From Mobula hypostoma (Eukaryota), in assembly GCF_963921235.1 (NCBI RefSeq), contig NC_086108.1, forward strand, positions 19,282,001-19,346,000: 64,000 nt of DNA, given 5' to 3'. Below, piece after piece: positions 2,226-50,988 of the stretch. Each line of letters opens with the position of its first letter. Position 1 is the stretch's first letter. The notes beneath the pieces were generated by a model. It had not been told where the DNA came from, ran no database searches, and was given only the letters and a program-made list of their open reading frames with translations. Both the position numbers and the translations under genes were made by a program.

Positions 2226-2330
2226 GACTTGGTTGGCTGGCTGTGGAAGGAATACCTCCTTTCCCTCTGGCTCTCTCTGATCAGCGATTTGCTGCTGTTG
2301 TTTTGCTCAGTCCTTCACACTTTAAGTTGG

Positions 2331-19585: not shown

Positions 19586-19796
19586 ACAACAGGAATTCTG
19601 CAGATGCTGGAAATTCAAGCAACACACATCAAAGTTGCTGGTGAACGCAGCAGGCCAGGCAGCATCTATAGGAAGAGGCGCAGTCGACGTTTCAGGCCGA
19701 GACCCTTCGAAGGGTCTCGGCCTGAAACGTCGACTGCGCCTCTTCCTATAGATGCTGCCTGGCCTGCTGCGTTCACCAGCAACTTTGATGTGTGTT
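19586..19796. mobile_element. Penelope-derived fold-back mini-element containing a perfect 176-bp palindrome
   Basis: 19621-19796 is self-complementary with centre TTC|GAA. Flanked by the direct repeat GTTCCTCTCTCATGCCA (19569-19585, 19794-19810). Confidence 0.95.
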
Positions 19797-20714
19797 CCTC
19801 TCTCATGCCACTGTAATTTCCTGTACTCCACTGAAATACCGACACATCAGATTTCGGCTTCTCTTTTTCAAATTTCGCAGTGAACTCAATCATGTTATGA
19901 TCACAGCATCTTAAGGGTTCCTTCACCTCAATCTCTCTAATCACCTCTGGTTCATTACACAATACCCAATCCAGTACAGCCGATCCCCTAGTGGGCTCAA
20001 CAACAAGCTGTTCTAAAAAGCCATCTCGCAGACATTCTACAAATTCTCTCTCTTAAGATCCAGTGCCGACCTGATTTTCCCAATCCACTCACTTGTTAAA
20101 ATACCCCACAATTATCATAACACTGCCCTTCTGACAAGCCTTTTCTATTTCCTGTTGTAATTTGTAGTCCACATCCCTGCAGCTGTTTGGAGGCCTATAA
20201 ATAACTGCCATCAGGGTCCTTTTACCCCTGCTATTTCTTAGCTCAACCCATAAAGATTCTGCATCACCTCTTATATATCATCTATAAGATCCTATATCAC
20301 CTCTTTCTAATGATTTAATATCATTTCTTACCAATAACGCCACGCCTCCGCCTCTGCCTATCTTCTGATACACCGTGTATCCTTGGACGTTCAGCTCCCA
20401 GAGACATGCATCCTTTAGCCACGTCTCAGTGATGGCCACAATATCACACCTGCCAATCTGTAGCTGTACGACAAGATCATCCACCTTATTCCTTATGCTG
20501 CGGGCATTTAAGTATAACACCTTAAGACCAGTATTTGATCATTTTCGCTTTGATTTCACTGTAACTTTATTGCACTGCAACTCATTCCAATGGCTACAAA
20601 TTTGCCCCATCACCTGCCTGTCTTTCTTGACATCTATACTGCTCAATATCTTAGATTTATTTCTGTTTTCTCCTTCCTCCGCTCTGTCATTCCGGTTCCC
20701 ATCCCCCTGCCAAA

Positions 20715-21650
20715 TTAGTTTAAACCCTCCCTAACAGCTCTATTAAACCTTCCCGCCAGGATATTGGTCCCCTTCGGGTTCAGGTGTAACCTGTCCTTTT
20801 TGAACAGGTCATACTTCCCCCAGAAGATATCCCAATTATCCAAGAATCTGAAGCCCTGCCCCCTACACCAGTCTCTCAGCCACGCATTCATCTGCCCGAT
20901 CCTCCTATTCTTGCCCTCGCTAGCACGTGGCACAGGTAGCAATCCCGAGATTACTACCCTGGAGGTCCTGCTTCTCAGCTTCCTTCCTAACTCCTGGAAA
21001 TCTCTCTTCAGTACCTCCTCCCTTGTCCTATCTATGTCATTGGTACCAACATGTACCAAGACAACTGGCTGCTCACCCTCCCCCTTCAGAATATTCAGGA
21101 CCCGATCCGAGACATCCCGTACCCTGGCGCCTGGGAGGCAACACACCATGCGGATATCTCTATCAGGCTCACAGAATCTCCTGTCCGTTCCCCTGACTAT
21201 GGAATCCCCTATGACTACCGCATTTCTCTTCTCCCTCCTCCTCTCCTGCACAACAGCACCAGGCTCAGTGCCAGAGACCCGGTCACCGTGGGCGTCCCCT
21301 GTCAGGTCGTCCCCCTCAACAGCATCCAGAACAAGATACTTGTTGCTGAGGGGGACAGCCACAGTTGTGCTCTCCACTATCCGGGCATTTCCCTTCCCTC
21401 TCTTGACAGTCACCCAGTTTTCTGACCCCTGTAGCCTAGGGATGACTACCTCCCTGTAGCTCCTGTCTATCACCTCTTCACTTTCCCTGATAAGCAGTAG
21501 GTCATCAAGCTGCAGCTCCAGATCCCTAACACGGTCTCTGAGGAGCTGCATCTCGGTGCATCTGGCGCAGATGTGGCCATCAGGGTGGCTGGAGGTCTCC
21601 CAGGATTCCCACATCTGACACCTTGAACAAAGCACTAACCCTGCAGGCAT
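20715..21650 (-). CDS. CR1 ORF1p (zinc finger, coiled coil, SGNH esterase), 311 aa, open
   Basis: CSRC...CARC zinc finger, LRDRVRDLELQLDDL coil, and GDSIVRG / VHVGTND / DRLH SGNH blocks. Confidence 0.9.
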   Translation of the reverse strand: MPAGLVLCSRCQMWESWETSSHPDGHICARCTEMQLLRDRVRDLELQLDDLLLIRESEEVIDRSYREVVIPRLQGSENWVTVKRGKGNARIVESTTVAVPLSNKYLVLDAVEGDDLTGDAHGDRVSGTEPGAVVQERRREKRNAVVIGDSIVRGTDRRFCEPDRDIRMVCCLPGARVRDVSDRVLNILKGEGEQPVVLVHVGTNDIDRTREEVLKRDFQELGRKLRSRTSRVVISGLLPVPRASEGKNRRIGQMNAWLRDWCRGQGFRFLDNWDIFWGKYDLFKKDRLHLNPKGTNILAGRFNRAVREGLN

Positions 21651-24519
21651 GCTATCTAATTCTACAGGAATGAAACAGGAAAAATAAGTCTACTCACCCA
21701 CTTACCTCGCCAAACAAACAAACTTTTTAAACGTTAGCTCGTACCGTTGGCTGTGAGAGCCCTGCTGTTCCTGTCTGTCCAGGCTGATTAGCGAAAGTGG
21801 GGCGGGGGGGAGAAAAAAAAGAGTTGGTGCTTTGCTCTCGCCTCTTCCCGTTTACCGCCGAAGCCCGTTGAAGCCAAAGCCCTACACTCTGCTCTCACTC
21901 ACTCCGCTGCCCGCTCCGACAGCCACCCGCTGTATAGGATGGTCTCCTTTTTAACCTCTCCGCGCTGTCCTGTTGACGTCATGCACCTGCACAGTCTCGT
22001 CCTTCTTGCACTCGAAGTTTAAAAAAAAAACTGCCTTCCTTCAGAATTCAGCTTCCACGACGCTCTGTAGTCCCAATCCAAAACAGATGATGCAAAGTTC
22101 ATCGCCAGAGGCTCAGCAATCTCCTCCCTCACCTTCCACAGTAGCCTGGGGTATATCTCATCCGGTCCCGGCAACTTATCCAACTTGATGCTTTCCAAAA
22201 GCTCCAGCACATCCTCTTTCTTAATATCTACATGCTCAAGCTTTTCAGTCCGCTACAAGTCATCACTACAATCACCAAGATCCTTTTCCATAGTGAATAC
22301 TGAAGTGAAATATTCATTAAGTACCTCTGCTATTTCCTCCGGTTCCATACACACTTTCCCACTGTCACCCTTGATAGGTCACATTCTTTCACGTCTTCTT
22401 ATCCTCTTGCTCTTCACATTCTTGTGGAATGCCTTGGAGTTTTCCTTAATCCTGCCCACCAAGGCCTTCTCATGGCCCTTTCTGGCTCTCCTAATTTCCT
22501 TCTTAAGCTCCTTCCTGTTAGCCTTATAATCTTCTAGATCCTGTACCCTGCCATAACTTCCCTGTCTCATTGGAACATATCTATGCAGAACTCCACACAA
22601 ATATCCCCTGAACATTGGCCACATTTCTTCCGTACCTTTCCCTGAGAACATCTGTTCCCAATTTAAGCTTCCAAGTTCCTGCCTGATAGCCTCATAATTC
22701 CCCTTATTCCAATTAAACGCTTTTCTAACTTGTCTGTTCCTATCTCTCTCCAATGCTATTGTAAAGGAGATAGAATTATGATTACTATCTCCAAAATGCT
22801 CTCCCACTGAGAGATCTGATACCTGACCAGGTTCATTTCCCAATACCAAATCAAGTACAGTCTTTCCTCTTGTAGGCTTATCTACATACTGTGTCAAGAA
22901 ACCTTCCTGAACACACATAACAAACTCCACCCCATCTAAACCCCTCACTCTAGGGAGATGCCAATTGATATTTGGGAAATTAAAATCTCCCACCATGACA
23001 ACTCTGTTATTATTACACCTTTCCAGGATCTGTTTCCCTATCTGCTCCTCGATATTCTTGTTACTATTGGATGGCCTATAAAAAACACCCAATAGAATTA
23101 TTGACCCTTTCCTGTTCCTAACCTCCACCCACAGAGACTCCGCAGACAATCCCTCCATGACGTCCACCTTTTCTGCAGCCATGACACTATCTCTGATCAA
23201 CAGTGCCATGCCCCACCTCTTTTGCCTCCCTCCCTATCCTTTCTGAAACATCTGAAACCCGGCACTTGAAGTAACCATTCCTGTCCCTGAGCCATCCAAG
23301 TCTCTGTAATGGCCACCACATCATAGCTCCAAGTACTGATTCACGCTCTAAGCTCATCCACTTTGCTCACAATACTCTTTGCGTTAAAATAGACACATCT
23401 CAAACCATCGGCCTGAGCACGTCCCTTCTCTATCACCTGCCTATCCTTCCTCTCGCACTGTCTCCAAGCTTTCTCTATTTGTGACCCAACAGCCTCTTCC
23501 TCCGTCTCTTCAGTTCGGTTCCCACCCCCCGACAACAATTCTAGTTTAAACTCTCCCCAGTAGCCTTAGCAATCCTCCCCGCCAGGATATTGGTCCCCCT
23601 GGGATTCAAGTGCAACCTGTCCTTTTTGTACAGGTCACACCTGCCCTAAAAGAGGTCCCAATGATCCAGAAATCTGAATTCCTGCCCCCTGCTCCAAACT
23701 CTCAGGCACGCATTTATTCTCCACCTCTCTCTATTCCTATACTCACTGTCATGTGGCACAGGGGTAGACTATTTTCTAAATGGGAGAAAATGCAAAAACC
23801 AGAGGTGCAAAGGGACTTGGGAGTCTCCAGGCAGAATTCCCTAAAGGTTAACTTGCAGGTTGAGTAAGGAAGGCAAATGCAATGATAGCATTCATTCAAG
23901 AGGACTAGAATATGATATCAAGAATGTAATACTGAGGCTTTAGAAGGCATTGGTCAGACCATATTTGGGGTATTGTGCAGTTTTGGGTCCATTATCTAAG
24001 TAAAGATGTGCTGGCATTGGGGATGCCCCAGAGGAGGTTCACAAGAATGATTCTGGGAATGAAGGGATTAATATATGAGGAACGTTAGATGGCTCTGGGC
24101 CTGTACTCGCTGAAGTTTAGAAGAATGATGGGGCAGGGGTCTCATTGAAACCTGCTGGATATTGGAAGGACTAGATAGGGAGGATGTGGAGAAAATGTTT
24201 CCTGTAGTGGGTTAGTCTAGCAAAGTAGGGCACAGCCTCAGAACAGAGGTACATCCATTTAGAACAGAGACGGAAAAGGAATCTCTTTAGACAAATAGTG
24301 CTGAGTCTGTGGAGTACATTGCTGTGAATTCACATGGTTTTGGAAGCCAAGTCACTGAGTGTATTTGAAGCAGATGTCAACAGGTTCTTTGTTAGTAAGA
24401 GTGTCAAATATTACGGGGGTGGGAAGACAGGAGAATGGGCTTGAGAGGGATAATAAATCAGCCATGATGGAATGGTGAAGCAAGCTCGATGGGCCAAGCG
24501 TTCACTTACAAACCCAGGG

Positions 24520-24900
24520 GAAGCAGCACCCACTCTTTTACCTCATAACTTCTCACTACGCAGGGGCCCAAATATTCCCTCCAGGTGAAGAAGCTAGTCA
24601 TATGCCCTTCTTCCACTGAGGGGCAATCAGCGGTCACAAGTTACTTTATCCATGTCAGAGAAAACAAGCAAAGATGGGTCAACTACAGTGCTGAGTAACT
24701 CTGTGCAGTCTGCAAGTGAGACCTGAGCTTCCAGTCATCTGTTAACTTAATTCTCTATCCCAACCCCACACTGACCCCCAAGTCTGTGGACCTCCAGTAC
24801 CACAATAAATTTCCATACCCAACCGAAGAACACCAACCTGTCTCCCAGCTTGTAATATTACAGCCTTCAAGACTCAAGTTCAGATAATCAGTCGTCTCCA
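24520..24900 (+). mobile_element. Decayed Penelope-like GIY-YIG fragment
   Basis: CAGGGGCCCAAATATTCCCTCCAGGTGA.. aligns by eye to 49362-49390 and the downstream GIY-YIG sequence. Confidence 0.55.
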
Positions 24901-25689
24901 TCTTGGTTACCACATCTCCAGCACTCACTTTCATCCCTCTCTTCCCCGTTTGGTCCTCTCCTCTATTTTATCCCTGCTCCAGACACACACTTGCAGTACT
25001 ATTTCAGTGAGAAAATGCAAATTCCTGGAGTTCAGAAATGTGGACATTCTTATACAGAAAGGTGGCATGGTCTGGATGGTGAGTTCTTTGATGACGGATG
25101 TTGCCTTCTTGTGGCAGCACTACCAGTGGTGGGAAGGTATGTACATTAGGCAGAGTCCACTACTCTCTGCAGCTTCTAACACGCTTGCACATAAAAATTG
25201 CCATACCAGACCGTGATACAACAATTTAGGATAATTTCAACAGTACATCAGTAGAAGTTTGTTGGAATGTTTAGTGACAAGCCAAACCTCCTTAAAGACA
25301 CTGGTGTGCATTGCATATCTTTGCGTCTATGTACTGGGCCCAGGACAGGTTATTTGGTATGTTACTACACAGAAATTTAAAGCTACTGACTCTCTACAGA
25401 TTAGTTGGGGGTAATGTCCCCCTGTTGGGGTAAATGGGAGAATCCATGAGCAAAAAGCCCTGTTTCTGTGGCCTGCCTGTGACTCTAACTCTTGGAAGAG
25501 GCAAAGGACTAGAGTTGACCTTCTAGTCATCATTTCACTAATTCCTCCAGAAGATGCAAATGAAAAGCAGATTTTTGAAATCTCGGAGTGGAATTCTAAC
25601 TTCTACAGATATACTGCAAATACTCCCTTTCTCTGGGCTGAATGTCAGCAGCAAGTGGAAAGTTGAAGAATCATAGAAAGCAGACCCTT

Positions 25690-25950
25690 CAGGCAATTGG
25701 GTCCATGACAACCAACACAACTTATTTATACTAATTCTACACAAACTCTATTTTATTCTCTCTATATGCTCTCTATATTGAGGGCAGTTTATAATGGTCA
25801 ATCAACCTGCCAAACCATGCTTCTTTAGGATATAGGTATAAACTGGAGCACCTGGAGGAAACCCACACAGTCATGGGGAAACTTGCAAACTCCACACAGA
25901 TAGCATCTGAGGTCAGGATTTAACCCAGGCTGTTGGAGCTGTGAGAGTGT
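25690..25950 (-). mobile_element. V-SINE/HE1-like SINE
   Basis: GGAGCACCTGGAGGAAACCCACACAG..GCAAACTCCACACAGA is the reverse complement of the V-SINE core. Confidence 0.7.
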
Positions 25951-26199
25951 GTATCCCACCCTGAGCAGAAGAGCATGACGCTGCAAAGCTCTGTGATGGT
26001 GCTTTTAGGGATGGGAAAAGAGGAGTGTCCAGTTGCTCTAGTCATGACCAATAGGTGTGGGCAGCCTCCCAGTCATTCAAGCTGCATGTGAATCCATAAC
26101 AGCCTGCTACTCTTCCTGAAGCTCAACAATTTCCCAGCACACATCTGCTTTGGATCCTATAATGACCAAAGTTCAAAGCACATTTATTATCGAGGTATA

Positions 26200-27051: not shown

Positions 27052-29511
27052 TTTCTTCTTCTTTATTAATGTTTTTATTGATTTAAAAAGAGCACATATA
27101 CAAACAAGAGGAGCATTATCTCAAATATATATATATCTCAATAACAATACAAACAGAAAGTGAAATAAACATTATCAAAATCATACATAGTATTAAGCTA
27201 ATATGTGGGTATATAATAAAAAAGACAGCCAATTCTCCTCTTATCAACTCATAGAGAGAGAAAAAAAACTTTAAATTTTTAAAATAAGAAAAAAACCCCA
27301 CTACACTATAAGAAAAAAGGAAGGAAAAAAAGGGACTGGGCAGTCCACTCTGAGGATATGACCAAAAAAAATGGAAAGACTTTCTGATCAAATCTAAGAC
27401 TTCGAAAAAATAATTGGAAGAGTAATAAATCAAGTTAAATGAAAATATTGAATAAAAGGTTGCCAGATTTGCTCAAATTTAAAGGATGTATCAAATGTCC
27501 GATTTCTTATTTTCTCTAAACTTAAACAGGACATAATGAAGGCAAGCCAATAAAAGACAGTAGGTGGATTAGAATCCTTCCACTTCAGTAAAATGGCTCC
27601 CCTAGCCAATAAAGCTGAAAAGGCTATCATATGTTGAGCAGAAACAGGAATATTTCCTGCTACTGATGGGATAATCCCAAAGATTGCCATAAGTAAATTA
27701 GGTCGTAGGTCCAGATCCAAGACTTTTGAAAGTGTTTTAAAAAAATCTCTCCAAAAATTAGCTTTATACAAGACCAAAACATATGAGTTGAAGTGGACAC
27801 ATCAATGTTACATCTGTCACAAATAGGATTGAAATTGGAAAAAATACGCGCTAGTTTATCCTTTGACATATGGGCCTGATGCACTACCTTGAACTGTATC
27901 AAGGAATGGCGGGTACAGATAGATGAGTTATTAACCAAATGAAAAACTTTACTCCATTGATTATCTGAAAATGACTCTTGAAATTCCAATTCCCAAGCAT
28001 ATTTAATTTTATCGTTAGATATCATTCGTAAATTCAATAACCGTTTATAAATTATAGCTATCAACCCTTTTTGAAGTGGTTTAAGCTGAAAGAGAGCATC
28101 TGTCATATTAGTTGGATAGGCAGAAGGGTAATTTGGCAGCAAACCACGTAAACATTTCTAATTTGTAAATATCTAAACAAGTGTACATTAGATCAATCAT
28201 ATTTATCCACTAACTGAGAAAAAGACATTAAACAATCCCCTAAAAATAAATCTGAAAAAGTTATTATTCCCTTGGTTTTCCAAATTAAAAAGGCCTTATC
28301 CAAAATTGATGGTTTAAAAAAATAATTGAAATGGATATTACTAGAAAGAACAAAATTTTTTAACTCAAAAGATCTATGAAACTGAAACCAAATTCTTAAT
28401 GTATGTTTAATAATAGGATTAAAGTCATGTCTACTAATCTTAGAAAACAAAAAGGGAAGAGGAGCTCCCAGTAAAGAGGCCAAAGAGAATCCCTTCACCG
28501 AGTTTTCCTCCAAATCCAACCGTGAAGGACATTCATGTACGTCTGAATAATGAATCTAGAAAGTAATACATCGAATATTAATTGCTCAATAATACATTCT
28601 AAAATTTGGCAAAGCCATACCACTGTCCTTTTTTAATTTCTGCAATAAGAGTTTACTCAATCTAAGATTTTTATTATTCCAAATATAAGATAAGATTATA
28701 GAATCTATTCTATCAAAAAACATTTTAAGAAACAAAGGTAGGAACTGCCTGAAATGTATACTGTATAAGAATTTCGGTAGAACTATCATTTTAATAGCAT
28801 TAATTTGACCTATTAATGATAATGTCATAGGTGACCATTTAGAAAGCATTTGTTGGGTGTAATCAATTAATGGGAGAAAATTATATTTATACAGGTCCTT
28901 AAAATTTTTACTTATCTTGGTATTAAAATTACTAAAGTAATTTTTAGCAATACTAAAAGGTACTTGATGATATTGATCTGAGTAATTATTAATGGGAAAT
29001 AACTCACTTTTATGTAAATTTAATTTATATCCAGAAAAACTACTGAATTCAGAAAATATAGATAACATAGAAGGAATAGATTTCCTAGGATCTGAAATAT
29101 AAACTAACAGGTCATCTGCATACAACGAAACCTTGTGTACTTTGTCCCCTCTCTTAATACCCTGAACAGTATTGGAATCTCTAAGAGCAATAGCAAGGGG
29201 TTCTAAAGCCAAGTTAAATAATAAAGGGCTAAGAGGATATCCCTGCCAAGTACCTCTGTATAATCTAAGGTAAGGAAATTTTTGATTATTAGTTATAACC
29301 GCAGCCGTAGGGCTTGATAGATCAATTTGATCCAGGAAATAAATCCCAGACCAAAATTAAATCTTTCCAAAACCTCAAATAAGTAAGACCACTCCACCCT
29401 ATCAAAGGCTTTCTCTGCATCAGAGAAACAACACATTCAGATTCTTTAGATGGAGAAGAGTGAATAATGTTTAATAATCTTCAAATTTTAAAATGTGAAT
29501 ATCTATTTTTA
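27052..29511 (-). mobile_element. 5'-truncated L1-clade LINE (ORF2 RT to CCHC)
   Basis: LEPLAIALR..VSLYADD..FSGYKLN and CDRC..THMFWSC. AT-rich, with 10-bp TSD TTCACTTCTC (27042-27051, 29512-29521). Confidence 0.92.
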
Positions 29512-33900: not shown

Positions 33901-34836
33901 TCCACAACCTGCAGAGTCCCCGTATTGGCAACTTAATCTTCTTTCTCCTGCTTTCTAAACACAGTTGGCTCTAAAACACACCCAATTTGCCAGTGCGCTA
34001 TTAATCTTCACCGCATTACAGTAGCTGTCTTTCCAGTCAATATTTTTGATCTATTCTGCAGTTTAGAACTTTTCATTCTGTTTCTGAAATAACATTCACA
34101 CTTGTAAAGAGGCATGACTTTATGATCACTGTGACTGAGTCTGATTAAAATAAATCTTGAAATCCTGATTTTCTCTCACTGGGAAAGAATATAGCTTGGA
34201 ACTTCAGGATCAAAGATAGCAAATCTTTCATCTGTCCACACCCTTAGTGATTTCACTATTCAAAATACTCAAGATGGCTCAAGTTTTAAGCTGCAGCAGA
34301 CCATGTACAATGCATTCTGAGAGGTGCCTCTGTGGGTAGCCAGCAAATGTTAACCTTCTAAAAGATATAGCAAGCAGGAACTTGTATTTATAATCACAAG
34401 AGGCCAGTATGGGGATGATACTAGCTCTGCATTACTGGATAAAGTGCTGGCACAAAGCAGCACAAAGTAAGAACTTGATCAAATTTGTCTGTGCTGTTTT
34501 ACCCTGTATCTTCAAATATTCAAAAACAAATGCAATATTGCTCACAGACTTAGTTCTGCACACTCGACATTCATATATTGCTCCATAGGTTCAACATTTA
34601 GTTGAAACATTTGTTGGCAGCACAGATGCCTGTCTAGGCATCTTCCCAGGGGATTGGCCTGAAACGTTGACTGTCCACTTTCCATCATAAAAGCTGGTAA
34701 CCTGGGCTCCCCAGCAACACAATGGCAGGTCATTGGTTCATGATCACTGACTTCAATTCTACTGGACATCTTCCCTCCACAGCCTCCATCCTCAATGTCA
34801 CTCAATCAAATCACAAACAAGAGAAAATCTGCAGAT

Positions 34837-34962
34837 CAAAGTTGCTGGTGAAGGCAGCAGGCCAGGCAGCATCTGCCTGGCCTGCTGCATTCACCAGCAA
34901 CTTTGATGGGTGTTGCTTGAATTTTCAGCATCTGCAGAATTCCTGTTGTTTGTGTTTTTAAA
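34837..34962. mobile_element. Very short Penelope-derived fold-back insertion
   Basis: About 35-bp inverted arms around a CAT loop, plus the terminal tail. TSD AAAATCTGCAGAT (34824-34836, 34963-34975). Confidence 0.85.
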
Positions 34963-35598
34963 AAAATCTGCAGATGCTTGAAATCCAAGCAACACATACA
35001 AAATGCTGGAGGTACTCAGCAGGCCAGGCAGTATCTATGGAAAAAAGCAGAGTTGATGTTTTGGGCCGAAACCCTTCGGCAGGACTGGAGAGAAAAAGCT
35101 GAGGAGTAGATTGGAAAGGTGGGGGAGGGGAGAGAGAAACACCAGGCAACAGGTGAAACTTGGAGTGGGGGGGAGCTGGGAAGTTGATTGGTGAAAGAGA
35201 CAGAAGGTCACCCAACATAGACCACTTCGCCAAGCATCTACATTCTGTCCACCAGAACAAACAGGATATCCCAGTGGCCATCCATTTTAATTCCCCTTCC
35301 CATTCCCATATGTCCTCCACTGTTGGAATAAGGCCATACTTAGGTTGGAGGAACAACATTTTACATTTCATTTGGGTAGCCTCCAACATGGTGGCATGAA
35401 CATCAATTTCTCAGACTTCCAGTAATGCCTCCCCACCATTTCCCATCTCCTTTTCCTTCTCTCATGTTATCTCCTTGCCTGCCCATTGCCTCTGGTGCTC
35501 TTCACCCCTCCCTTTTTTCTTTCTTCCATATCCTTCTGTCTCTTTCACCAATTAACTTCCTAGCACTTTGCCTCATCCCTCTCCCTCCAAGTTTCACC

Positions 35599-36473
35599 TG
35601 TTACGTACCCCGTAACTGGGTTGCCAAACCAGCAGAAATGGATCACTCAGTTGGAGTCTGGATTACTAAATCTAAGAAAGTTTTATTAAAGAAACAAACA
35701 ACACAGTAATCGAAAGGACAATAAATGCAACAGTTCAGCAATGATAAACACACATGTGCACAGAATTAAGATAACAGGATCAATCAAGCTCTATCGTTGT
35801 CTAGGGGTAAATGACCAATTTCAGAGTGACACAAAGTCCAGTTCAATTTAGTTCAGTTCGCAGTAATCGTTGCCATAGCGATGGACAATGTGGGGGGAAG
35901 GAGAGAGAGAGAGAGAACAAGAATGACTGATCATTCAAAACGGCTTCCACACACAGACCTGCGATATTGCTCACAAGCAGCTTTCAGGCGAGTCCTTTGT
36001 GATGTCACCTGAGGTCACCGACTGTGACCCCTCCTCCAGATGCGGTCGATCCTCTGCAGTGAACCTGGCACCCAAGCAAGGGCGGACACACACCGGGTTC
36101 CCGCCGATCGTACCTTTCCACCCTGTGCGTCTAAGGCTTGGTTCCGCAACCAGCCTTCCAAACGACTCCTGCCGACTTGCGGGGGGGGGGGGCACCGCTT
36201 CCAGGGTCTCGTTACCTCATGGTGTCGTGTGTGTCCTGCCTTAGCGAACCTGTCCCTTTTTATCCCCCTGCTGGGGTATCGCCTGTCCATCACTTCAAAC
36301 AGTTCAGGGTTCAAAGGGGGAGCCGCTCTAGACAGCTGTCTCTCCCGTCCCTTCATTACTCATCTCCAAATACTGCTCGATTGTCTTCCTTATCTCTCTC
36401 TCTCCCGAAGACAGGTGGCAGACCAACTGCTGATCACACAGGACAGCTAACATCTATGTATATTCTTGTCACA
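35599..36473 (-). mobile_element. Solo LTR (875 bp, probably Gypsy/Ty3)
   Basis: TGTTAC...GTCACA termini, 4-bp TSD CACC, TTTATT near the left end, CpG-rich. Confidence 0.85.
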
Positions 36474-36835
36474 CACCTATCACCTGGTGTTTCTCTCTCC
36501 CCTCCCCCACCTTCTAAATCTACTCCTCAGCTTTTTTTCTCCAGTGCGCCCAAGTGTTTCAGCCCAAAACATCAACTGTGCTTTTTTCTATAGATGCTGT
36601 CTGGCCTGCTGAGTTCCTCCAGCATTGTGTGTGTGTCATTCAATCAAACATAGATCACTTCAACCTCCTCCCTAAGATCCACAGCAGACCCAAACCAGTC
36701 AACCCACTGATCTAGCCTGTTCTCTTCCACAGAATTCGCTTCATCCTTGGTTGACTTTCCTTGCTCAGTGTCTTCCCACCTACAAATCGATGTTTCATGC
36801 CAATAACCTTTCATCCAATCTTGATGCCAAATTCA

Positions 36836-38540: not shown

Positions 38541-39669
38541 GGCTGTGCTTTCTCGATCTTCCACTCCATCTCAGGGCAGTACTGCTGTTGTATTGGATTT
38601 AGGCCTCTAACTGAGAGAGACTGAATATCCTTTCCCTGACACCACGTGCCTCTCTCTGACCAGGGCCTGAACACATTGGCCCCAGCAAGGACATCAGGTA
38701 TTTCCCCATCTGCCCAATCACCTCCCCTCACCTGGATTCACCTATCACCTGACAACTCCTGCCTCACCCCTCCCCCATCTTTTTATACTGGATATCCCAC
38801 CTCTTAGTTCTTCAATCCATATGAAGGGCCTCAATTTAAAATATCAGCTGTCCATTTCTCTCCATAGATGCTGTCTGACCTGTTGAGTTCTATCTTTATG
38901 CCTGTTGCTTCAGATTCCAGCAGCAACAGTCTCTCAAGTGTCTGTTGTATAAAGTCTATTCAACGCATGAAAACTTTGAACAAGTTTTCCTCTTCTCTTT
39001 GACGAGAGTTATGTGAGACCCTCTCTCACCATTCCCTCTCCGTGATGTCTGCAGCTATCCTGCTCTTTGACCACATGTTTGCCCAGACTCACTACCACAG
39101 CCATGTATCCTTCCTGGGCACCTGTCTCCTCCATCATCTTCTCCCACATCACTTTCATTTCCAGCTTCTAGCAAGCAGCCAATCTGCCTACCAAACCCTC
39201 ACCTATTTGCTTCCCAGCTCTTGCCTCCATCTCCCCTCTACCTTTCAGTAGATGAAGGGTCTTGACCCAGAAGGTTGACTGTGCATTTTCCTCCATAAAT
39301 GCTGCATGACTTGCTGACTTGGGGGGCCCTTCCTAACATAATGTCAGATCATTGTTTCATGGTCACTGACCTCATCTCCATTGGAGACCTTCCTACCACA
39401 GCTCACCTTGACATTCTCGCTAAGATCTACAGCAGAGCCATCCTAGTCCACTCACTGATTCAGCCTGTTCTCTTTCACAGAGCTCACTTCTTCCTTGCTC
39501 ACTGCCTTCCCACCTACAACATCAAAACCATCTCCTCTACCATGTTACCAATTTCCAGTCTCCTGTCCTCAACTGGTTTACTTTCACCACAGATATCATC
39601 TTCCATCTGCCATCACTGTGGTTTGACCTTTGCCCTCTGCCCCCTGGCCAAATGCATTTCCATACGTTT

Positions 39670-39973: not shown

Positions 39974-40015
39974 CTTCCCCTTTAACTAACTCACTTCCTC
40001 CAAGTAAAGGGCATG

Positions 40016-40236
40016 GTAAGGGGAAGCTTTACAGGGCCTGTCTCTTTGTGGTATAGTGGGAACATTGTTTGTTTTAGATATAAAGAGTGTAGTAAGGGGA
40101 GGCTTTACAGGGCCTGTCTCTTTGTGGTATAGTGGGAACATTGTTTGTTTTAGATATAAAGAGTGTAGTAAGGGGAAGCTTTACAGGGCCTCTCTCTTTG
40201 TGGTATAGTGGGAACATTGCTTGCTTTAGATATAAA
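40016..40236. repeat. Tandem repeat, 76-bp unit, about 2.9 copies
   Basis: Units start at 40016, 40092 and 40168 and are nearly identical. Confidence 0.95.
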
Positions 40237-40799
40237 ACCAAACACAAAAGACTTGAAATGCTCAGCAAGTAAGGCAGCATCTGCAAAGGGAGAGAGCAGG
40301 TTGATGTTTCAAGCCAATGACCTGATATAGGGCTGTAATCAAAACATCTTGCCTCCCCCACAGTTGCTGCTCAACCCACTCAATACCTCCAACAGATTGT
40401 TTGCTGCTTGACCTACTATCAACACACCTTTTAGTCTCACAAGACCCCTCACATTGGGAGCTGTGTTGCTGCCTCATCTTACACAAACTCCTGTTCTCAT
40501 TTTCACATTGCCCATCGCTGCTACTTCCCTTTTCTCAAGTTGTTATCCATTTCAGGGTTTCAGTTGACTCATGCTTCCTGTAAGGGCTCCATTCCAGTCA
40601 CAGTAACCCCTCACTGCCCAGTCCACTGTTCACCAATGGATCTAAACCTTCAATGCTTTCTGCCATGTTTAATAGTAACTGGACAGCTTCAGATCTTGAT
40701 AACTAATTTGACAGTGCCAACTTCCACACCACAGTATCTGATATGTTCTACCCTTTGTTTTTAAAAACAGCTTTGTAAAGTCTTACAGTTGTATAACTG

Positions 40800-42039: not shown

Positions 42040-45000
42040 GAGCATCACCAAACCTGGTGAGATCTTTCTCCTTGTGAGGGTTTTTTTTCTTTAGAAACCA
42101 GTAGCCAGTGCGCAGGCACGGGAACCGTCAGAGGCATCGACATCAGCGGAAGGCAGGCGGAGTACTGTACCACCAAACCCGGTGAGTTCTTTCTCCCTGC
42201 GTGGGGTTTCTGCTTAAAAACAGGTTAGCCAGTGCGCAGGTGCGGGAACCGTCAGAGGCATCGGAAGGCAGACGAAGGACTGCCAAACACGATGAGTTCT
42301 TCCTCCTTGCGTGGGGTCGGGTCGGGTCCTATTTTTTAAACCATAAAAGAGAGATTGGGTCTAGCGGAGCAGCCATCGGACTGTGGGCTGGAGTCAGAGT
42401 GGGAACCTAGAGGCTTTGACGAGAAGAGGTTGAGGCCAAAGAAACAGGGAAGAAGGGTAGGTTTTTCCTTTCATTATTGCTGATTTGGTCTTGGTTGCCC
42501 ATAGTACAGTGCAGGCAGGATGACAGATATGGCAGTGGAATGCTCCTGCTGTAGGATGTGGGAATTCATGGAACCTGATGGTCTCCCAGATAACTACACC
42601 TGGGGGATGTGCAGCCAACTCCAGTTCCTGAAAGAGCGCACTAAGGAGCTGGAGCTGGAGCTGGAGCTGGAGCTGGAGCTGGAGCTGAATAAACTAAGGA
42701 GCTGGAGCTGGAGTTGGATAAACTAAGGATCATCCGAGAGGCAGAGCAATTGATAGATAAGACTTTTCAGCAGGTGGTTACACCCAGAGTGAGAATTCAG
42801 GGAGCAGATGGCGTACACCGAGAGAGGTAAAGGGAGGAAAGTCAGTGCAGGATTCCCCTGTGGCCATTTCCCTCAGCAACAGGTACTGATGAGGGGGATA
42901 ACCTATCTGGGCAAGGCGGCAGCAGCAGCCAGACCCATGGCACAGTGGCCGGCTCTAAATCTCAGAAGGGTAGGGTGGTCAAGCTGAGCAATAGTCATAG
43001 GGGCTCGATATTTGGAGGGGGGGGGCAGACAGATTCTGCGGCAGCAAAAGACATGCCAGGACAGTGTATTGTCTCCCAGGTCTAGGGTCCAGGACGTCTC
43101 TGAGCGGTTGCAGAATATTCGTGAAGTGGAGGTGAGCAGCCAGAGGCTGTGGTACATATTGGTACCACTGACATAGGCAGGAGAGACATGTGCAGTAAGT
43201 TTAGGGAGTTAGGAAGGAGGCTGAAGAGCGGGACCTCCAAGGAGGTGATCTCCAGATTACTCCCAGTGTAACGAGCTAGGGAAGGTCAGAACAGGAAGAC
43301 AGCACAGACGAATGAGTGGCTGAGGAGATGATGCAGGGAGCAGTGTTTCAAGTTATTGCATCATTGGAACCTTTTCTGGGGAAGGGGTGACCACTCCAAG
43401 TGGGACAGGTTGCACCTGAACTGGAGGGGAACCAATATCCTGGGAGGGAAGTTTGCTAATGCTGTTGGGGAAGGTTTAAACTGGATTTACGGGGGAATGG
43501 GAACCGAAATGAAGAGGCAGAGGATGGGGCGGTTGGTGCTTGTAGGGAGTTTGTGAGGAAGGATAGGCAGATGATAGAGCAAAGATGCACTCAGTCAGAT
43601 GGTTTGAGATGTATCTACTTTAATGCAAGGATATCATAAACAAAGCAGCTAAATTAGAGGAGGATCCATACATGGAACTAAGACGCTGTGGCCATACAGA
43701 GACTTGGATGTCTCAGGGGAAAGAATGGCTGCTGAGTGTGCTGGACTTTAGATGTTTCAAAAAGGACAGGGAGGGAGGCAAAAGAGATGGGGGAGCAGCA
43801 TTGCTAATCAGGGATATTATCATGGTTGCAGAAAAGGAGGAAGTTATGGAAGGATTGTCCACTGAGTCAAAAACAGGAAGGGAACAGTAGCTCTACTAGG
43901 AGACCTTGCTTTGTGGATCCAGAGAAGGCACACAGAAGGCAAAGGGTGGTTGTGGATGGTTCATATTCTGCATGGAGGTCAGTGACCAGTGGTGTTCTGC
44001 AGGGATCTGTTCTAGGACCCCTCCTCTTTGTCATTTTTATAAATAGTCATAGTCATACTTTATTGATCCCAGGGGGAAATTGGTTTTCATTACAGTTGCA
44101 CCATAAATAGTAAATAGTAATAGAACCATAAACAGTTAAATAGTATTATGTAAATTATGCCAGTAAATTATGAAATAAGTCCAGGACCAGCCTATCGGCA
44201 CAGGGTATCTGACCCTCCAAGGGAGGAGTTGTAAAGTTTGATGACCACAGGCAGGAATGACTTCCTATGACGCTCTGTGCTGCATCTGGGAGGAATGAGT
44301 CTCTGGCTGAATGTACTCCTGTGCCCACCCAGTACATTATGTAGTGGATGGGAGGCATTGTCCAAGATGGCATGCAACTTAGACAGCATCCTCTTTTCAG
44401 ACACCACCGTGAGAGAGTCCAGTTCCATCCCTACAACATCACTGGCCTGGATGAAGAAGTGGAAGGTTGAATTAGTAAGTTTGCTGATGATATGAAAGTT
44501 GGGGGTGTTGTGGATATCTGAAGGGTTGTTAAGGTTACAGTGGGACATCGATAGGATGCAGAACTGGCAGATCAACCCAGGTAAATGTGAAGTGGTCTAT
44601 TTTAGCAAGTCACATTTGAAGACAGAATACAACATTAATGGTAAGACTCTTGGCAGCGTGGAGGATCAGAGGGATCTTGGGGTCCATGTCCGTAGGACAC
44701 TCAAAGCTACTGCAAAGGTTGACAGTGTTGTTAAGAAGGCATATGGTGTGTTGGCCTTTACCAACCGTGGGATAGAGTTCAAGTGCTATAAGTTAATGTC
44801 ATAGCTACACAAGCCCTTAGACCCTACTTTAAGTATTTTCAGTTCTGGTCACCTCACTACATGAAAGGTGTGGATACCATAGAGAGGGTGCAGAGGAGAT
44901 TTACAAGGATGTTGCCTGGATTGGAGAACGTACCTGATGAGAATAGGTTGAGTGAACTTGGCCTTTTCTCTTTGGAGCAACAGAGAATGAGAGGTGACCT

Positions 45001-45360
45001 GATAGAGGCGTATAAGAATCAGAGGCATCAATCATGTGGATAGCCAGAGGCTTTTTCCCTGGGCTGAAATGGCTAACACGAGGGGACATTGTTTTAAGGT
45101 GCTTGGAAGTAGGTATAAGGGGGATGTCAGAGGTAAGTTTATCACACAGAGTGGTGGGTGCATGGAATGCACTGCCAGCGATGGTGGTAGAAGCAGATAC
45201 AATAAGATCCTTTAAGAGCCTCTCCAATAGGTACATGGAACTTAGAAAATTAGAGGACTATGTGGTAGGGTACCTAGGCAGTTTCTAGAGTAGATTACTT
45301 GGTCGGCACAACTTTGTGGGCTGAAGGGCCTGTACAGTGCTGTAGGTTTCTATGTTCTAT
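42040..45360 (+). mobile_element. CR1 with tandemly repeated 5' region, disrupted ORF1 and internally deleted ORF2
   Basis: ECSCCRMWE zinc finger at 42520 and esterase relics. The EN start joins mid-RT at about 43905. 3' tail at about 45360. Confidence 0.85.
44043..44447 (-). mobile_element. Rex1-like LINE 3' fragment inserted in CR1
   Basis: KLHAILDNASHPLH..RLIPPRCSTERHRKSFLPVVIKLYN and an (ATAGTC)n tail. Confidence 0.82.
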
Positions 45361-45824
45361 TGCAACTCCCCCCACTCTACAATTAAGTAAATGGTCTTCT
45401 GTTCATCACAGCTGTGATATCAGGGCAAAAATCTCAATCTTCCCCTTAATAATATTAGATTGGATATACAGCATATGCAATTGTAATGAAACAGTCGTAT
45501 ATACAGCAACTTAAGGCCCCACAGCACATTTGGATATCTGATTTGGATTCACTTTTGCAATCACTGCACAGTTAATGTACAAAAAAGTTAACTCCCCAAG
45601 TAGCTAGATGGCTTCTTGAGATTTATAGTTCTAAAGGCTTATCAACTGGTATCTGTGGATTCTAATTCACATTTGCGACTGTGCACCGTTATGGTTAATA
45701 TTTTAATTGATGTTTCATCGGACTGATTTTATTTCATCATTTTCAGAGAGTGAATGAGCAAGAGAGAAAAGGCAGGCAGAGGGGAGAGGGAAGACCAAAA
45801 CTATCAGTGGCTACAGGAAGAGAA

Positions 45825-47371
45825 TGTCATTGGTGGCTGGGAACAGACCCAAGTGCAAGACACAGACACTGAAGTACTAGGGACAGGACTAGGATACAGG
45901 GCGATGGCAACGACATGGACAGGAAAACCAGGAACCTGGAACAGGATTTGACAAGAGAGCTAGGAGCCCGGGCTTGGACTCCGAGCCAGAGACTGGACAA
46001 GGACCCAGTACCTGGGTCTTGCCTCTGGCTCGGACCCCAGAACCCGGCAAGGACAAGGCTTGGCAGGCAGGCAGGACGAGGCTGGAATCTTCAGGCTTGA
46101 GGCGAGACTTGGCAGGAGGCTGGAGTCTTGAGGCTAGAGGCTAGAGGCGTGGCAAGAGGCTAGAGACTTGGCTTGGCTTGGCCAGAGGCTAGAGACTTGG
46201 CTTGGCAAGAGGCTGGAGATTTGGCTTGGCTTGGCAAGAGGCTAGAGATTTGGCTTGGCTTGGCAAGAGGCTAGAGACTAGAGGCAGGAGGCTGGAGTCT
46301 TCAGGCTTGAGGCGAGGCGAGGCAGGAGACGAGGCAAGGCGAGGCGGGGCAGGAGGCAGGAGACTTGAGGCGAGGCAAGGCGGGGCAGGAGACTTGAGGC
46401 GAGGCGGGGCTGGAGGCAGGAGACTTGAGGTGAGGCGAGGCGGGGCTGGAGGCAGGAGACTTGAGGCGGGGCTGGAGGCAGGAGACTTGAGGCGAGGCGG
46501 GGCTGGAGGCAGGAGACTTGAGGCGAGGCGGGGCTGGAGGCAGGAGACTTGAGGCGAGGCTGGGCTGGAGGCAGGAGACGAGGCGAGGCTGGGCTGGAGG
46601 CAGGAGACGAGGCGAGGCTGGGCTGGAGGCAGGAGACTTGAGGCGAGGCTGGGCTGGAGGCAGGAGACTTGAGGCAAGGCGAGTCTGGAGGCAGGAGACT
46701 TGAGGCGAGGCGAGTCTGGAGGCAGGAGACTTGAGGCGAGGCGAGTCTGGAGGCAGGAGACTTGAGGCAAGGCGAGTCTGGAGGCAGGAGACTTGAGGCA
46801 AGGCGAGTCTGGAGGCAGGAGACTTGAGGCGAGGCAAGGCTGGAGGCAGGAGACTTGAGGTAAGGCTTGGCAGGCTCCTCCTGGGTAGGGCGCGGATCAC
46901 CACCCGACAGAGGCAAGAGACAGGAAGGGACAGAACCAACCGCAGGTAATGGCGAGATGGCCTGGCTTACCTGGCGGAGGCAAGGTACAGGATGGGAGCT
47001 AGGTACAGGGTGGCTCCAGGACAAGACTGCAGGCAAGACGAGGTGAGAGTTACCGGCAAGACAAGGCAAGGCTTCTGGCAAAGCAAGGTGAGACCAGAAC
47101 TTCAGGCGAGGCCAGAGTTACCGGCAATACAAGGCAGGGCTTCAGGCGAGGAAACATAAGGCAGAGCAAGAGATACAAGGAGTAAGGACAAGAACAATCC
47201 AGCAGCTATGCCTGGGTCTCTGAAAGTATTTATGCAGCCAGCCGCAACGAGCATCAGCTGCCTCAATTAGCTCAACAAGGACAGAAACAGGGTAGGCAGG
47301 AAAACCCGGGTCAAGGGTCGATGGGCCAGACCGTGAACCGGAATGCAGACTTCACGGACCGGACCATGACA
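45825..47371 (-). mobile_element. Solo LTR (1547 bp) inflated by an internal minisatellite
   Basis: TGTCAT...ATGACA termini, perfect 5-bp TSD GAGAA, and TATA-like GCATAAATA on the minus strand. Confidence 0.85.
46090..46870. repeat. G-rich minisatellite, main unit about 31 bp GAGGCAGGAGACTTGAGGCGAGGCGGGGCTG
   Basis: Directly visible tandem array with blocks of variant units. Confidence 0.95.
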
Positions 47372-48314
47372 GAGAAATAGAATGAGAGTGACTGCATGTC
47401 TGAAACAAATATGAAAGAAGGGAAGGACCTGTACACTTCAACCATATTGGAAGTGATGCACCAGCTATTTGTTTTGGATGTCAGTGGCTGCAGTTGTAGA
47501 TTGCCTTCCAGTACCCTATTGATAGTCTTCCAAGTTTTGCTACACAACTGTGATTTTATTCCAATATAATCTCAAAGATGCTTGCAGCATGGAGACTATC
47601 TCATGTAGAATGAATGAAATTGAATAGATGGTCACTGTGGAACGATGGTGTCAGATTTGAATTTTGTGATCTGTTTAATACCCCAACACCTGAACTAGAC
47701 TGATGCAGTTTCATTTCAGCACTCCCATGATAGAACAAGTGATTAGCAAACACAATTATTTCTCCTAATTAGCCCTTTTAAGTGAATTCTTATTCAAACA
47801 GCCAGCATTTCATTAGGGGGAGAAAAACGCTAGTCACCCTTACCACAGACAACTGGTTATTTTATGGATTTTAAAAACAATTAAAAACAAAGATTTACAT
47901 TTTGACAAATTTCTAAAAGAGAAAATAACAGATGCTACCATTTCCTTAGCAGATAAGAACATAACAAATACTCAAGATCTAAAATATAGTGCCGTCTTTT
48001 GCAAAGAATAAGATGTTTAATGGTTCAGTACCCAGTATTAGGATAATTACTCTGAACTATCAACATCTAGAACCTGTTGATTTTCTATTCCCTGCAAAAA
48101 GAATACCACAATCAGGATTTGGGAAGGATTAAAGTGAATTCTTTTTATTACAAAGTATTTTCAACTTTAATTCCAATTCCAGTATGAAATGTGTGTTTGG
48201 TACCACTTGGGGAAGAAGAGTGGACATGCAGACAAAGCTGGTTCAGTTCGATTTTGAGTTAACATAAATCACCTGCTACAAATGTTATTGGATAAAGCTT
48301 TTGTTCACTTATCT

Positions 48315-48560
48315 TTTTTTAAATTTAGGTATACAGCGTGGAACAGTCCCTTCTGGCCCAATGTGCCTCACCAGCCAGCAACCCTCCTGTTTCTTAGCCG
48401 AATCCTAGATCAACTTATAATGGGCAATTAACCTACAAACTGGTACGTCTTTGGAGAAACCCACGTGGTCACAGGGAAAACGTACGAACTCCTTACGGAC
48501 AAAGCCAGAACCGAACTCTGAGGCACCTCTAACTGCAATAGCATCACAATAACAGTGGCA
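48315..48560 (-). mobile_element. V-SINE/HE1-like SINE, 5' end hit by the Penelope insertion
   Basis: GAAACCCACGTGGTCACAGGGAAAACGTACGAACTCCTTAC is the reverse SINE core. Confidence 0.7.
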
Positions 48561-48620
48561 ACACACATAAAAGTTGCTGGTGAACGCATCAGGCCAGGCA
48601 GCATCTCTAGGAAGAGGTGC

Positions 48621-48656
48621 AGTCGACGTTTCAGGCCGAGACCCTTCGTCAGGACT
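48621..48656 (-). ncRNA. Minimal type I hammerhead ribozyme motif (Penelope-associated)
   Basis: Minus strand AGUC CUGACGA AGG-loop-CCU GAAAC GUC GACU has an intact core. Confidence 0.85.
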
Positions 48657-49310
48657 AACTGAAGGAAGAGTGAGTAAGGGATTTGAAAGTTGGAGGGGGA
48701 GGGGGAGATGCAAAATGATAGGAGAAGACAGGAGGGGGAGGGATGGAGCCAAGAGCTGGACAGGTGATAGGCAAAAGGGATACGAGAGGATCATGGGACA
48801 GGAGGTCCGGGAAGAAAGGGGGGGGGGGACCCAGAGGATGGGCGAGGGATATATTCAGAGGGACAGAGGGAGAAAAAGGAGAGTGAGAGAAAGAATGTGT
48901 GCATAAAAATAAGTAACAGCTGGGGTACGAGGGGGAGGTGGGGCCTAGCGGAAGTTAGAGAAGTCAATGTTCATGCCATGCTACCCAGACGGAATATAAG
49001 GTGTTGTTCCTCCAACCTGAGTGTGGCTTCATCTTTACAGTAGAGGAGGCCGTGGATAGACATGTCAGAATGGGAATGGGATGTGGAATTAAAATGTGTG
49101 GCCACTGGGAGATCCTGCTTTCTCTGGTGTTCAGCAAAACGATCTCCCAGTCTGCGTCGGGTCTCGCCAATATATAGAAGGCCACATCAGGAGCACCGGA
49201 CGTAGTCTATCACCCCAGCCGACTCACAGGTGAAGTGTCGCCTCACCTGGAAGGACTGTCTGGGGCCCAAAATGGTGGTAAGAGAGGAAGTGTAAGGGCA
49301 TGTGTAGCAC

Positions 49311-49712
49311 TTGTTCCGTGTAAGCTACATATGCCCTTACACTTCCTCCCTTACCACCATTCAGGGCCCCAAACAGTCCTTCCAGGTGAGGCGACACTTC
49401 ACCTGTGAGTCGGCTGGGGTGATATACTGCGTCCGGTGCTCCCGATGTGGCCTTTTATATATTGGCGAGACCCGACGCAGACTGGGAGACCGCTTTGCTG
49501 AACATCTACGCTCTGTCCGCCAGAGAAAGCAGGATCTCCCAGTGGCCACACATTTTAATTCCACATCCCATTCCCATTCTGACATGTCTATCCACGGCCT
49601 CCTCTACTGTAAAGATGAAGCCACACTCAGGTTGGAGGAACAACACCTTATATTCCGTCTGGGTAGCCTCCAACCTGATGGCATGAACATCGACTTCTCT
49701 AACTTCCACTGA
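49311..49712 (+). pseudogene. Penelope-like GIY-YIG endonuclease domain (5'-truncated, open frame)
   Basis: VIYCVRCSRCGLLYIGETRRRLGDRFAEH...HFN...EEQHLIFRLGSLQPDGMN. Confidence 0.92.
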
Positions 49713-50004
49713 GGTCCCACCTCCCCCTCTTACCCCATCTGTTACTTATTTTTATACACACATACTTTCTCTCACTCTCCCTTTTCTCCCTCTGTCTCTC
49801 TGAATATACCCCTTGCCCATCCTCTGGGTCCCCCTCCCTTGTCTTTCTTCCCGGACCTCCTGTCCCATGATCCTCTCGTATCCCTTTTGCCTATCACCTG
49901 TCCAGCTCTTGGCTCCATCCCTCCCCCTCCTGTCTTCTCCTATCATTTTGCATCTCCCCCTCCCCCTCCAACTTTCAAATCCCTTACTCACTCTTCCTTC
50001 AGTT

Positions 50005-50040
50005 AGTCCTGACGAAGGGTCTCGGCCTGAAACGTCGACT
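50005..50040 (+). ncRNA. Minimal type I hammerhead ribozyme motif
   Basis: AGTCCTGACGAAGGGTCTCGGCCTGAAACGTCGACT: helix I AGTC/GACT, CUGANGA, helix II, GAAA and GUC cleavage triplet. Confidence 0.85.
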
Positions 50041-50988
50041 GCAGCTCTTCCTAGAGATGCTGCCTGGCCTGCTGCGTTCACCAGCAACTTTTATGTGTGT
50101 TGCTTGAATTTCCAGCATCTGCAGAATTCCAGTTGTTTGCGTGACAATAACAGTGGCACCCACTTAGCCTTGTCTCATTAGCTGGGCATATGCACTTCAA
50201 ACAGAATTTCCTGCCTCGAGGCAGGCTGGCCTAGCCTGATGACAATTGTTGATGATGATGTTTTATAAGGGAGTATATGAACTGATAATGGAAACAGAGT
50301 TTTAGAGAACATCTAGCCTTCACATGCCACTTATTTCAAGCTATCAGAACCATACCAGACTAATAAACAGAAGATAAAGCCCATGGGTTCTGAAGAGAGG
50401 CCTCAGCCTGAGAAGTCAAATGTTTATTCATTTCCATAGATGCTGCCTGACCTGCCGAACTCCTCCAGCATTTTGTGCGCGCTGCTGTGGGTTTCCAGAA
50501 TCCGTAGACGTTCTCGTGTGGAAGATAAAAATGTACCTACTGTCACTGTCAAAAAACACAAGTACCTGCATGGGACCAGCATGTAGATAATGGTCAAATT
50601 ATATTCAGACTCCATACCATTTCAATCAGGGAATGGTTATTTTAGGAACCGCTTACTCTTCCAGGATCCATTCCATGATCAGATGAATCTGTTCTGATGC
50701 AAATAATGTCACCACTATAAACTTGTTTAATGCAATTAATTCATTAATGAGAAGATAATTGTGAAGTCAGAATAGTTTAATAAAATATATTACAATGCCC
50801 AGAATATTTTAAAGATGAAACAAACACTTATTGTGGGAGGTGTACAACAGAATTAGCCAACAGTTCATGATACAAGCTCCTATCACTAGCTCTTGTCAAT
50901 GGTAGCAACTGGATCTGGTTGTGTCACAAGGGCTGGATTCACTTCTCTTAAAGTAATGCAGAGGGAAGTCAGGGCAAAGGAAGTTCAG

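Follow-up and report, generated by a model that had tools for sequence, protein, structure and literature searches.

A 64,000-nucleotide (nt) stretch of the genome of the ray Mobula hypostoma (assembly GCF_963921235.1, contig NC_086108.1, positions 19,282,001 to 19,346,000 of the forward strand; hereafter the window, numbered from its first letter) carries four insertions, E1 (19586-19796), E2 (34835-34962), E3 (34811-36636) and E4 (48558-50143), each of which is a head-to-head pair of 5'-truncated 3' ends of Penelope-like elements. Every pair is enclosed by a single target duplication of 13-17 base pairs (bp), has a tail of 36-48 nt on one arm only, and represents one integration event. The way in which they arose is probably a form of twin target priming, in which both target nicks prime, one per start site, and the two complementary DNA (cDNA) ends are joined by microhomology, as in L1 twin priming.

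The direct repeats are identical at 17 of 17 nt in E1 (starting at 19569 and 19794), 13 of 13 in E2 (34824, 34963) and 15 of 15 in E4 (48546, 50144), and at 14 of 15 in E3 (34796, 36634). Among random flank pairs (n = 3000), a repeat of at least 13 nt with at most one mismatch was found in 0.4%. With E1 and one repeat copy removed, the remaining site matches (92.7% over 300 nt) the CR1 paralogue at 10478-10776, which is uninterrupted, and this in silico excision restores the open CR1 frame across the join. A first-pass annotation, made by a model from the letters of the window, had described four independent insertions with direct repeats and a one-sided tail; pairs, repeats and tail are all present, and one event per pair holds, although E2 is nested in the tail of E3, as a separate event but in a non-random location. 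Two of the four pairs sit in their own kind, E2 between the two presumed start sites of E3 and E3 in an older Penelope-like piece. Lengths given for the E3 arms (257 nt, its tail included, and 548 nt) exclude E2 and a later 875-nt insert with features of a long terminal repeat (LTR). The latter (35599-36473) resembles a solo LTR, for which we take it to be a candidate, and no second copy of it was found in the 64-kb window.

The affiliation of the elements was examined on the best preserved coding parts. The right arm of E4 has a GIY-YIG domain (PF01541, 24.6 bits against a cut-off of 22.6) followed by a stop, and the CCHH motif, whose two cysteines lie between GIY and YIG, is represented by VIYCVRCSRCGLLYIG and later histidines. 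In the left arm, where the endonuclease piece has a stop codon and deletions, the CxxC part of a CX2-5CxxC linker is present, the full CX4CxxC being found in the relative P0001. According to PMC8557442 (cited, as are all papers below, from the portions of text available), this linker before the endonuclease marks Neptune/Nematis and is missing from Penelope/Poseidon. Judged by this sequence feature, the elements are of the Neptune/Nematis type, and the Poseidon clade is ruled out because the linker is present. The truncated arms hold no reverse transcriptase; it is found in the relatives P0001 (95% identical, YIDD motif) and P0015 (RVT_1 below cut-off). Among proteins, the endonuclease piece of E4 shows 95% identity to one of Mobula hypostoma and 80-89% to four of Hypanus sabinus.

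A putative minimal hammerhead core (CTGA-N-GA...GAAAC-GTC) is situated on the coding strand of three arms, ~105 nt inside the terminus, while Rfam models at their own thresholds gave no match in the window. E1, E2, E4 and the comparison copy E7 make up one family (93-95%), and E3 and the comparison copy E5 a second one, ~75% similar to the first. Both the Penelope-like identity and the two families proposed in the first-pass annotation are thereby borne out, the former by domain, cysteines, linker and core. All four pairs are dead and 5'-truncated, and come from two related Penelope-like families of this ray that bear an endonuclease. Features are listed in Table 1.

Table 1. Positions of the inverted pairs, their flanking duplications and related features in the window
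Feature	Positions	Strand	Remarks
E5, comparison copy	15154..15443	+	solo arm ending at the tail-less site; 6-nt duplication; within CR1 open reading frame (ORF) 2
E1 left duplication copy	19569..19585		17 nt; within ORF2 of a CR1 long interspersed nuclear element (LINE)
E1 tailed arm	19586..19709	-	124 nt; terminus to CG in the putative hammerhead core
E1 tail-less arm	19708..19796	+	89 nt; identical to tailed arm; CG common at centre; 3 nt common with right repeat
E1 right duplication copy	19794..19810
E3 left duplication copy	34796..34810		15 nt; one mismatch; within old Penelope-like fragment
E3 tailed arm	34811..35207	-	second family; 257 own nt; tail interrupted by E2
E2 left duplication copy	34824..34836		13 nt; target is the tail of E3
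E2 tail-less arm	34835..34874	-	40 nt; 5 nt further inward than partner; 2 nt common with target, 2 at centre
E2 tailed arm	34873..34962	+	83 nt, then ~7 extra T/A bases
E2 right duplication copy	34963..34975
E3 tail-less arm	35210..36636	+	548 own nt; starts in GIY-YIG coding region; 3 nt common with right repeat
Later insert in E3 tail-less arm	35599..36473		875 nt; TG...CA ends; 4-nt duplication
E3 right duplication copy	36634..36648
Solo arm	38692-38944
Decayed possible pair	40240-40415		without clear duplication; excluded from counts of four
E4 left duplication copy	48546..48560		15 nt
E4 tail-less arm	48558..49318	-	761 nt; 10 nt further inward than partner; 3 nt common with target
Putative minimal hammerhead core	48625-48652	-	pattern per PMC4209133
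E4 centre	49319..49323		5 inserted bases
E4 tailed arm	49324..50143	+	819 nt and one extra base
C-terminal GIY-YIG endonuclease coding piece	49326..49712	+	128 amino acids (aa), then stop
Putative minimal hammerhead core	50009..50036	+	pattern per PMC4209133
E4 right duplication copy	50144..50158
Solo arm	50388-50519
E7, comparison copy	63440..64000	-	tailed arm of the E1/E2/E4 family; continues past window edge
Putative minimal hammerhead core	63543-63570	-	pattern per PMC4209133

Outer ends of the arms fall at two sites. Tail-less arms of the pairs begin at offsets 40, 42, ~43 and 49 nt into the reference end, and tailed arms at offsets 4-6; the E3 right, E4 left and E4 right junctions were read from alignments and the remaining ones by an exact-match anchor. 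The solo arm E5 stops at the equivalent of offset 42 and has a duplication of its own, so the inner site is an end in its own right. Bases common to the tail-less end and the target were observed in all four pairs (3 nt in E1, E3 and E4, 2 nt in E2). In 20000 random joins, at least 2 nt were common in 17.5% and at least 3 nt in 6.0% of trials, and a match of at least 2 nt at four ends out of four has, by hand calculation, a chance of about 1 in 1000. At the tailed ends, E1 has 1 nt in common with the target, and extra bases are present in E2 (~7), E4 (1) and probably E3 (1). In the main family, the inner site is located on a predicted stem-loop with an 11-bp stem and a 10-nt loop.

Turning points at the inner ends are different in each of the four pairs. 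Inward reach is equal for both arms in E1, and greater for the tail-less arm by 5 nt in E2, 10 nt in E4 and ~330 nt in E3. E1 is a perfect palindrome with CG common at its centre, and 2 nt are common at the centre of E2. At the centre of E4, 5 bases together with one flanking base on each side repeat a 7-mer at 49290-49296, 28 nt upstream, and are a short templated insertion. The additional 10 nt of E4 are element sequence, as they lengthen the match to P0001. In E2, E3 and E4, neither arm is a subset of the other: the tail is present only in the tailed arm, and the extra inner nucleotides only in the tail-less arm. Because the tail-less arm reaches equally far or further inward, it is not a fold-back copy of the tailed arm. 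In a snap-back that begins at the tail, the loop has to come from the tailed cDNA itself, whose arm would then extend further inward than its partner, and there are no such cases here; a tail-less cDNA snapping back alone supplies no tail, so that two primings, or an asymmetrically cut hairpin, are needed. The nearly fixed start of the tail-less arms combined with variable turning points supports a per-insertion mechanism, of which the first-pass annotation had named it as the sign. Turning at the hammerhead cut site was also considered and rejected, as E1 turns inside the core ~22 nt upstream of that site, and the other three elsewhere.

The arms are inverted in all four pairs, as first described, but they are not always mirror images, as the unequal arms of E3 illustrate. 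In E1 the arms are identical, while in E4 they differ at 26 of 751 sites (3.5%) and by four indels. Differences between the E4 arms are patchy (11/181, 0/161, 13/148 and 2/261; for the longest two runs of identity, P 5e-5); comparison of 49324-50103 with 48558-49318 shows two clusters of them, and in each of the four indels it is the tail-less arm that has lost sequence. Within the diverged patches, five non-CpG sites are listed at which both letters occur commonly in the family (sites drawn from 40 of 343 rows), and the arms differ at three of them (49372, 49455, 49756; post hoc P about 8e-4). CpG ageing was rejected as the source of the patches, since eight of nine CpGs in the inner tract are intact in both arms. 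Gene conversion from arm to arm is doubtful: the identical tracts have no family-rare letter among the 40 of 343 rows listed. The E3 arms differ at 23 of 215 sites, which is compatible with age.

The window was surveyed by a profile search (best E 2.7 in the reversed-window control). Eight insertions have both sides in the window: four clear inverted pairs, one decayed possible pair adjoined by a 76-nt triple repeat (40016-40236), and three solo arms. E7, which leaves the window, was excluded, as were hammerhead-like pieces at 34648 and 39228, which continue into ORF-like sequence and are not ends. The solo arms at 38692-38944 and 50388-50519 have no convincing flanking duplication. Inverted pairs are common in this window, which agrees with the first-pass view of fold-back or template switching as the routine product; fold-back of the tailed arm is not supported, as the tail-less arm holds element sequence that the tailed arm is without in three of three informative cases.

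Contigs assembled from reads bridge the right junction of E4 in three of four runs, X1, X5 (another sample) and X6 (another organism), X17 being without cover there; the X6 contig has three other letters in 286. Among the joints listed (15 of 700) and the loose ends listed (24 of 3109), none corresponds to the centres of E1-E4. One opposite-strand joint, 50006/50082, has a depth of 164 in X1 against ~16 for unique flank, corresponding to about ten copies. Similar places were observed in X6, where 50078 and 50115 are joined to 50005, a candidate small repeated mini-unit. Depth remains below 500 in the 15 best-supported of the 700 joints and in 12 further table rows, compared with a summed family depth in the millions; joint counts are saturated in X1 and X6, and contigs may collapse perfect palindromes. 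Loose contig ends before 50005 look like other hammerhead-bearing families rather than a fixed truncation. Summed depth across the tail drops about fourfold in X1, X6 and X17 and threefold in X5, which was not used as evidence, the bin being partly flank and depth not being copy number. Pattern scans for DNA of relatives gave none in genome contigs, viral contigs or metagenomes, where a single short match (L001, 34 nt only) looks unrelated.

Based on the anatomy, polarity and junction matches observed here, we propose the following course of twin priming. The GIY-YIG endonuclease would nick both target strands 13-17 nt apart, as the duplications suggest. One free 3' end would prime at the outer start site, almost or entirely without matching bases, giving the tailed arm, and the other would prime ~40 nt further in, at the GU-rich stem-loop, aided by 2-3 matching bases, giving the tail-less arm. 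Two start sites, with nicking and extension of both strands, are known from another clade in vitro: the Poseidon element of Anolis, with a predicted dimer, nicks and extends both strands, and its reverse transcription starts at two internal sites, the interval between which is the tail (PMC11167929). Both primings would take place in one event, and the two cDNAs would end at one position or close to it, for which the simplest account is that both copy one broken RNA with the inner-primed enzyme ahead. Their 3' ends would then be joined via 2-nt microhomology or a short templated patch, and gap filling would complete the palindrome. The model also covers a variant in which the tail-less cDNA briefly folds back and only then pairs with its tailed counterpart; the resulting sequence would be the same. 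As a tentative extension, twin priming might be built in, with a dimer that uses one RNA to prime both target strands from two fixed points ~40 nt apart, the inner-primed enzyme leading and the outer one following, so that the tail-less arm would always have at least the same inward reach and a palindrome would be the usual product.

Several observations weigh against twin priming as proposed. Its polarity comes from three of three informative cases among four pairs, an outcome that a coin toss would give 1 time in 8, and remodelling of a palindrome's centre can follow insertion. In three of the four pairs the inner ends are nearly equal, which needs a coupling that two independent RNAs lack, and the common-variant differences of E4 hint at two templates or at later exchange with other copies rather than at a single shared RNA. 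The patchiness of E4 is fully explained by no model considered. Regarding the inner site, the solo E5 has 0 nt of microhomology there, the region folds no stronger than shuffles (z -1.42, -0.33), and the second family folds differently from the main one. Finally, the in vitro work concerns another clade, in which priming occurs without homology and start sites are AC-rich, while the coding strand here is GU-rich at both ends.

Rather unlikely, in our estimate, is an origin through a hairpin intermediate, formed by self-primed antisense RNA or by a long cDNA reaching past the tail, opened by staggered cuts ~40 nt apart and then joined to the target, with the loop strand being tail-less. Self-priming on an antisense template has been proposed (PMC3846280), as has a tail arising from endonuclease resolution (PMC8557442), and such a hairpin fits the polarity and the near-equal inner ends; the centre of E2 can be read as a 2-bp stem with a 3-nt loop, and the E1 arms are identical. 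However, the borders of the tail were later shown to be target-primed start sites (PMC11167929), the E1 centre is without a loop, E3 would require one of ~330 nt, and arms identical at birth are at odds with the common-variant differences of E4. A simpler snap-back, to which the fold-back of the first-pass annotation corresponds most directly and where a tail-started cDNA folds, copies itself, halts ~40 nt short and joins the other target end by microhomology, accounts for the matches at tail-less and their lack at tailed ends, as well as for near-equal arms and the identity in E1. It nevertheless needs a tailed arm that extends further inward, the opposite of all three informative cases, and the solo E5 stops at the inner site without any partner arm; this origin is thus contradicted unless later remodelling changed the centres, and we hold it to be improbable.

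Miniature inverted-repeat transposable elements (MITEs) and fold-back DNA transposons are short, hairpin-forming and flanked by direct repeats, as are these pairs. Here, in contrast, the ends are asymmetric with a one-sided tail, the duplications have 13, 15, 15 and 17 nt, turning points differ from copy to copy, and the arms are 3' ends of retroelements. The suggestion in the first-pass annotation that the smallest forms are separately mobilised MITE-like units, amplified as non-autonomous hairpins, finds an argument in the 50006/50082 joint with its about ten copies. It does not agree with turning points that differ in four of four pairs, with the lack of a repeated junction in the window, or with the low depth of the listed joints relative to the family; in addition, a Poseidon RNA has to contain the initial 172 nt of the ORF, which lie beyond the start sites (PMC11167929), and by inference across clades an inserted end should miss part of this signal. 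We therefore hold amplified units to be very improbable. Hardly credible are two separate insertions at one site or assembly artefacts, even though a Penelope end can itself receive a Penelope insertion (E2 in the tail of E3) and the E1 arms are as identical as in a chimera: a single duplication surrounds each pair, the arms differ in E4 (3.5%) and E3 (23/215), E3 carries two nested later insertions, the right junction of E4 is found in contigs of three runs, and a chimera would yield neither a target duplication nor a one-sided tail.

The architecture itself is already published, and these insertions are well-preserved examples of a known pattern, about which more has been described than the first-pass annotation stated. 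An inverted copy with a 31-bp tail, duplications of 8-10 bp and palindromic junctions is described in PMC3846280, where self-priming was proposed; in PMC8557442 an inverted 5'-truncated copy with a one-sided tail of 30-40 bp is called typical, and PMC4209133 reports that minimal hammerheads also occur in pairs, on opposite strands and separated by 100-700 bp. The tail, in turn, has the in vitro explanation given above. A close likeness is to the inverted pairs of Penelope-like elements with an endonuclease (Pen2a_Av and others; PMC3846280, PMC8557442 Fig. 2), which share the head-to-head 5'-truncated copy, one duplication, a 30-40 nt tail on one end, a palindromic junction and a hammerhead in the terminal repeat. 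Differences are that both arms are heavily truncated here (down to 40 and 83 nt), that duplications have 13-17 nt instead of 8-10 in rotifers, and that tails have 36-48 nt. The polarity of inner ends and the microhomology contrast at outer ends are not given for the Pen2a_Av type in the available text of these two papers.

Poseidon (PMC11167929) resembles the present elements in ends that lie a tail apart, ~100-140 nt past the hammerhead core, in a stem-loop at the start and in the use of both strands. It belongs to a different clade, without the CX4CxxC linker of the near relative P0001 (PMC8557442), its start regions are AC-rich in contrast to the GU-rich coding strand here, and, in the available text, no target match is reported, compared with 2-3 nt at tail-less ends here, and inverted products were not reconstituted. 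In L1 twin priming (10.1101/2024.08.27.596794, and also treated in 10.1101/2024.12.14.628481), microcomplementarity joins the cDNA ends, and in many cases the lengths are correlated and an internal duplication is present; both nicks prime with short complementarity and one target duplication results, as proposed here. However, the second L1 primer lands anywhere upstream and the pieces are mostly non-overlapping, whereas here it is fixed ~40 nt away and nearly the whole insert is duplicated; the enzyme family is also different and there is no poly(A). Our literature search found no paper that describes this pattern for rays, or twin priming for Penelope-like elements; most subscription papers (e.g. 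Arkhipova 2006) were outside this search, and the polarity may be in print.

What these four pairs contribute, the polarity of inner reach and the microhomology contrast at outer ends, provides small but usable handles on mechanism. Formation of tandem and inverted structures is listed as open in PMC8557442, and steps after the first strand are unvalidated in PMC11167929, both in the portions available. The candidate mechanisms can be told apart by these two asymmetries, and any ray assembly offers thousands of copies in which to count them. If the built-in, leader-follower form of twin priming is true, an integration step described as unresolved (PMC8557442, PMC11167929) would have left thousands of readable records in these genomes, and the elements would be a steady source of new palindromes and of templates for double-stranded RNA. 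For annotation purposes, such hairpins should be filed as truncated Penelope-like insertions and not as MITEs.

Other Penelope-like remains were also noted. Two old copies, 34648-34810 with 36649-36800 and 39228-39519 (70-73% alike), have a hammerhead-like end continuing into sequence that resembles a reverse transcriptase start; they contain LLPKIH, match P0015 with 40% over 35 aa, and possibly constitute an internally deleted non-autonomous family. E3 landed in the first of them. At 24537-24787 there is a weak, heavily decayed match to a Penelope-like linker and endonuclease (E 2e-4).

The window as a whole is repeat-rich vertebrate DNA with many CR1-like LINE pieces. ORF pieces on the minus strand at 1872-4047, one with a weak match to a retroviral-type aspartyl protease (PF00077, E 3e-5), form a broken stretch resembling an LTR element or retrovirus, and fragments of L1/Tx1-like ORF2 (zf-RVT below cut-off) are located on the same strand at 27430-29356. 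A long tandem array of 29-31 nt units, with open frames on the minus strand, occupies 46078-46860 and beyond. CR1-type ORFs were observed at 20715-21689 and 56584-57648, both on the minus strand, and include an endonuclease-like frame of 354 aa and a frame with a GDSI motif, which we take to be esterase-like.

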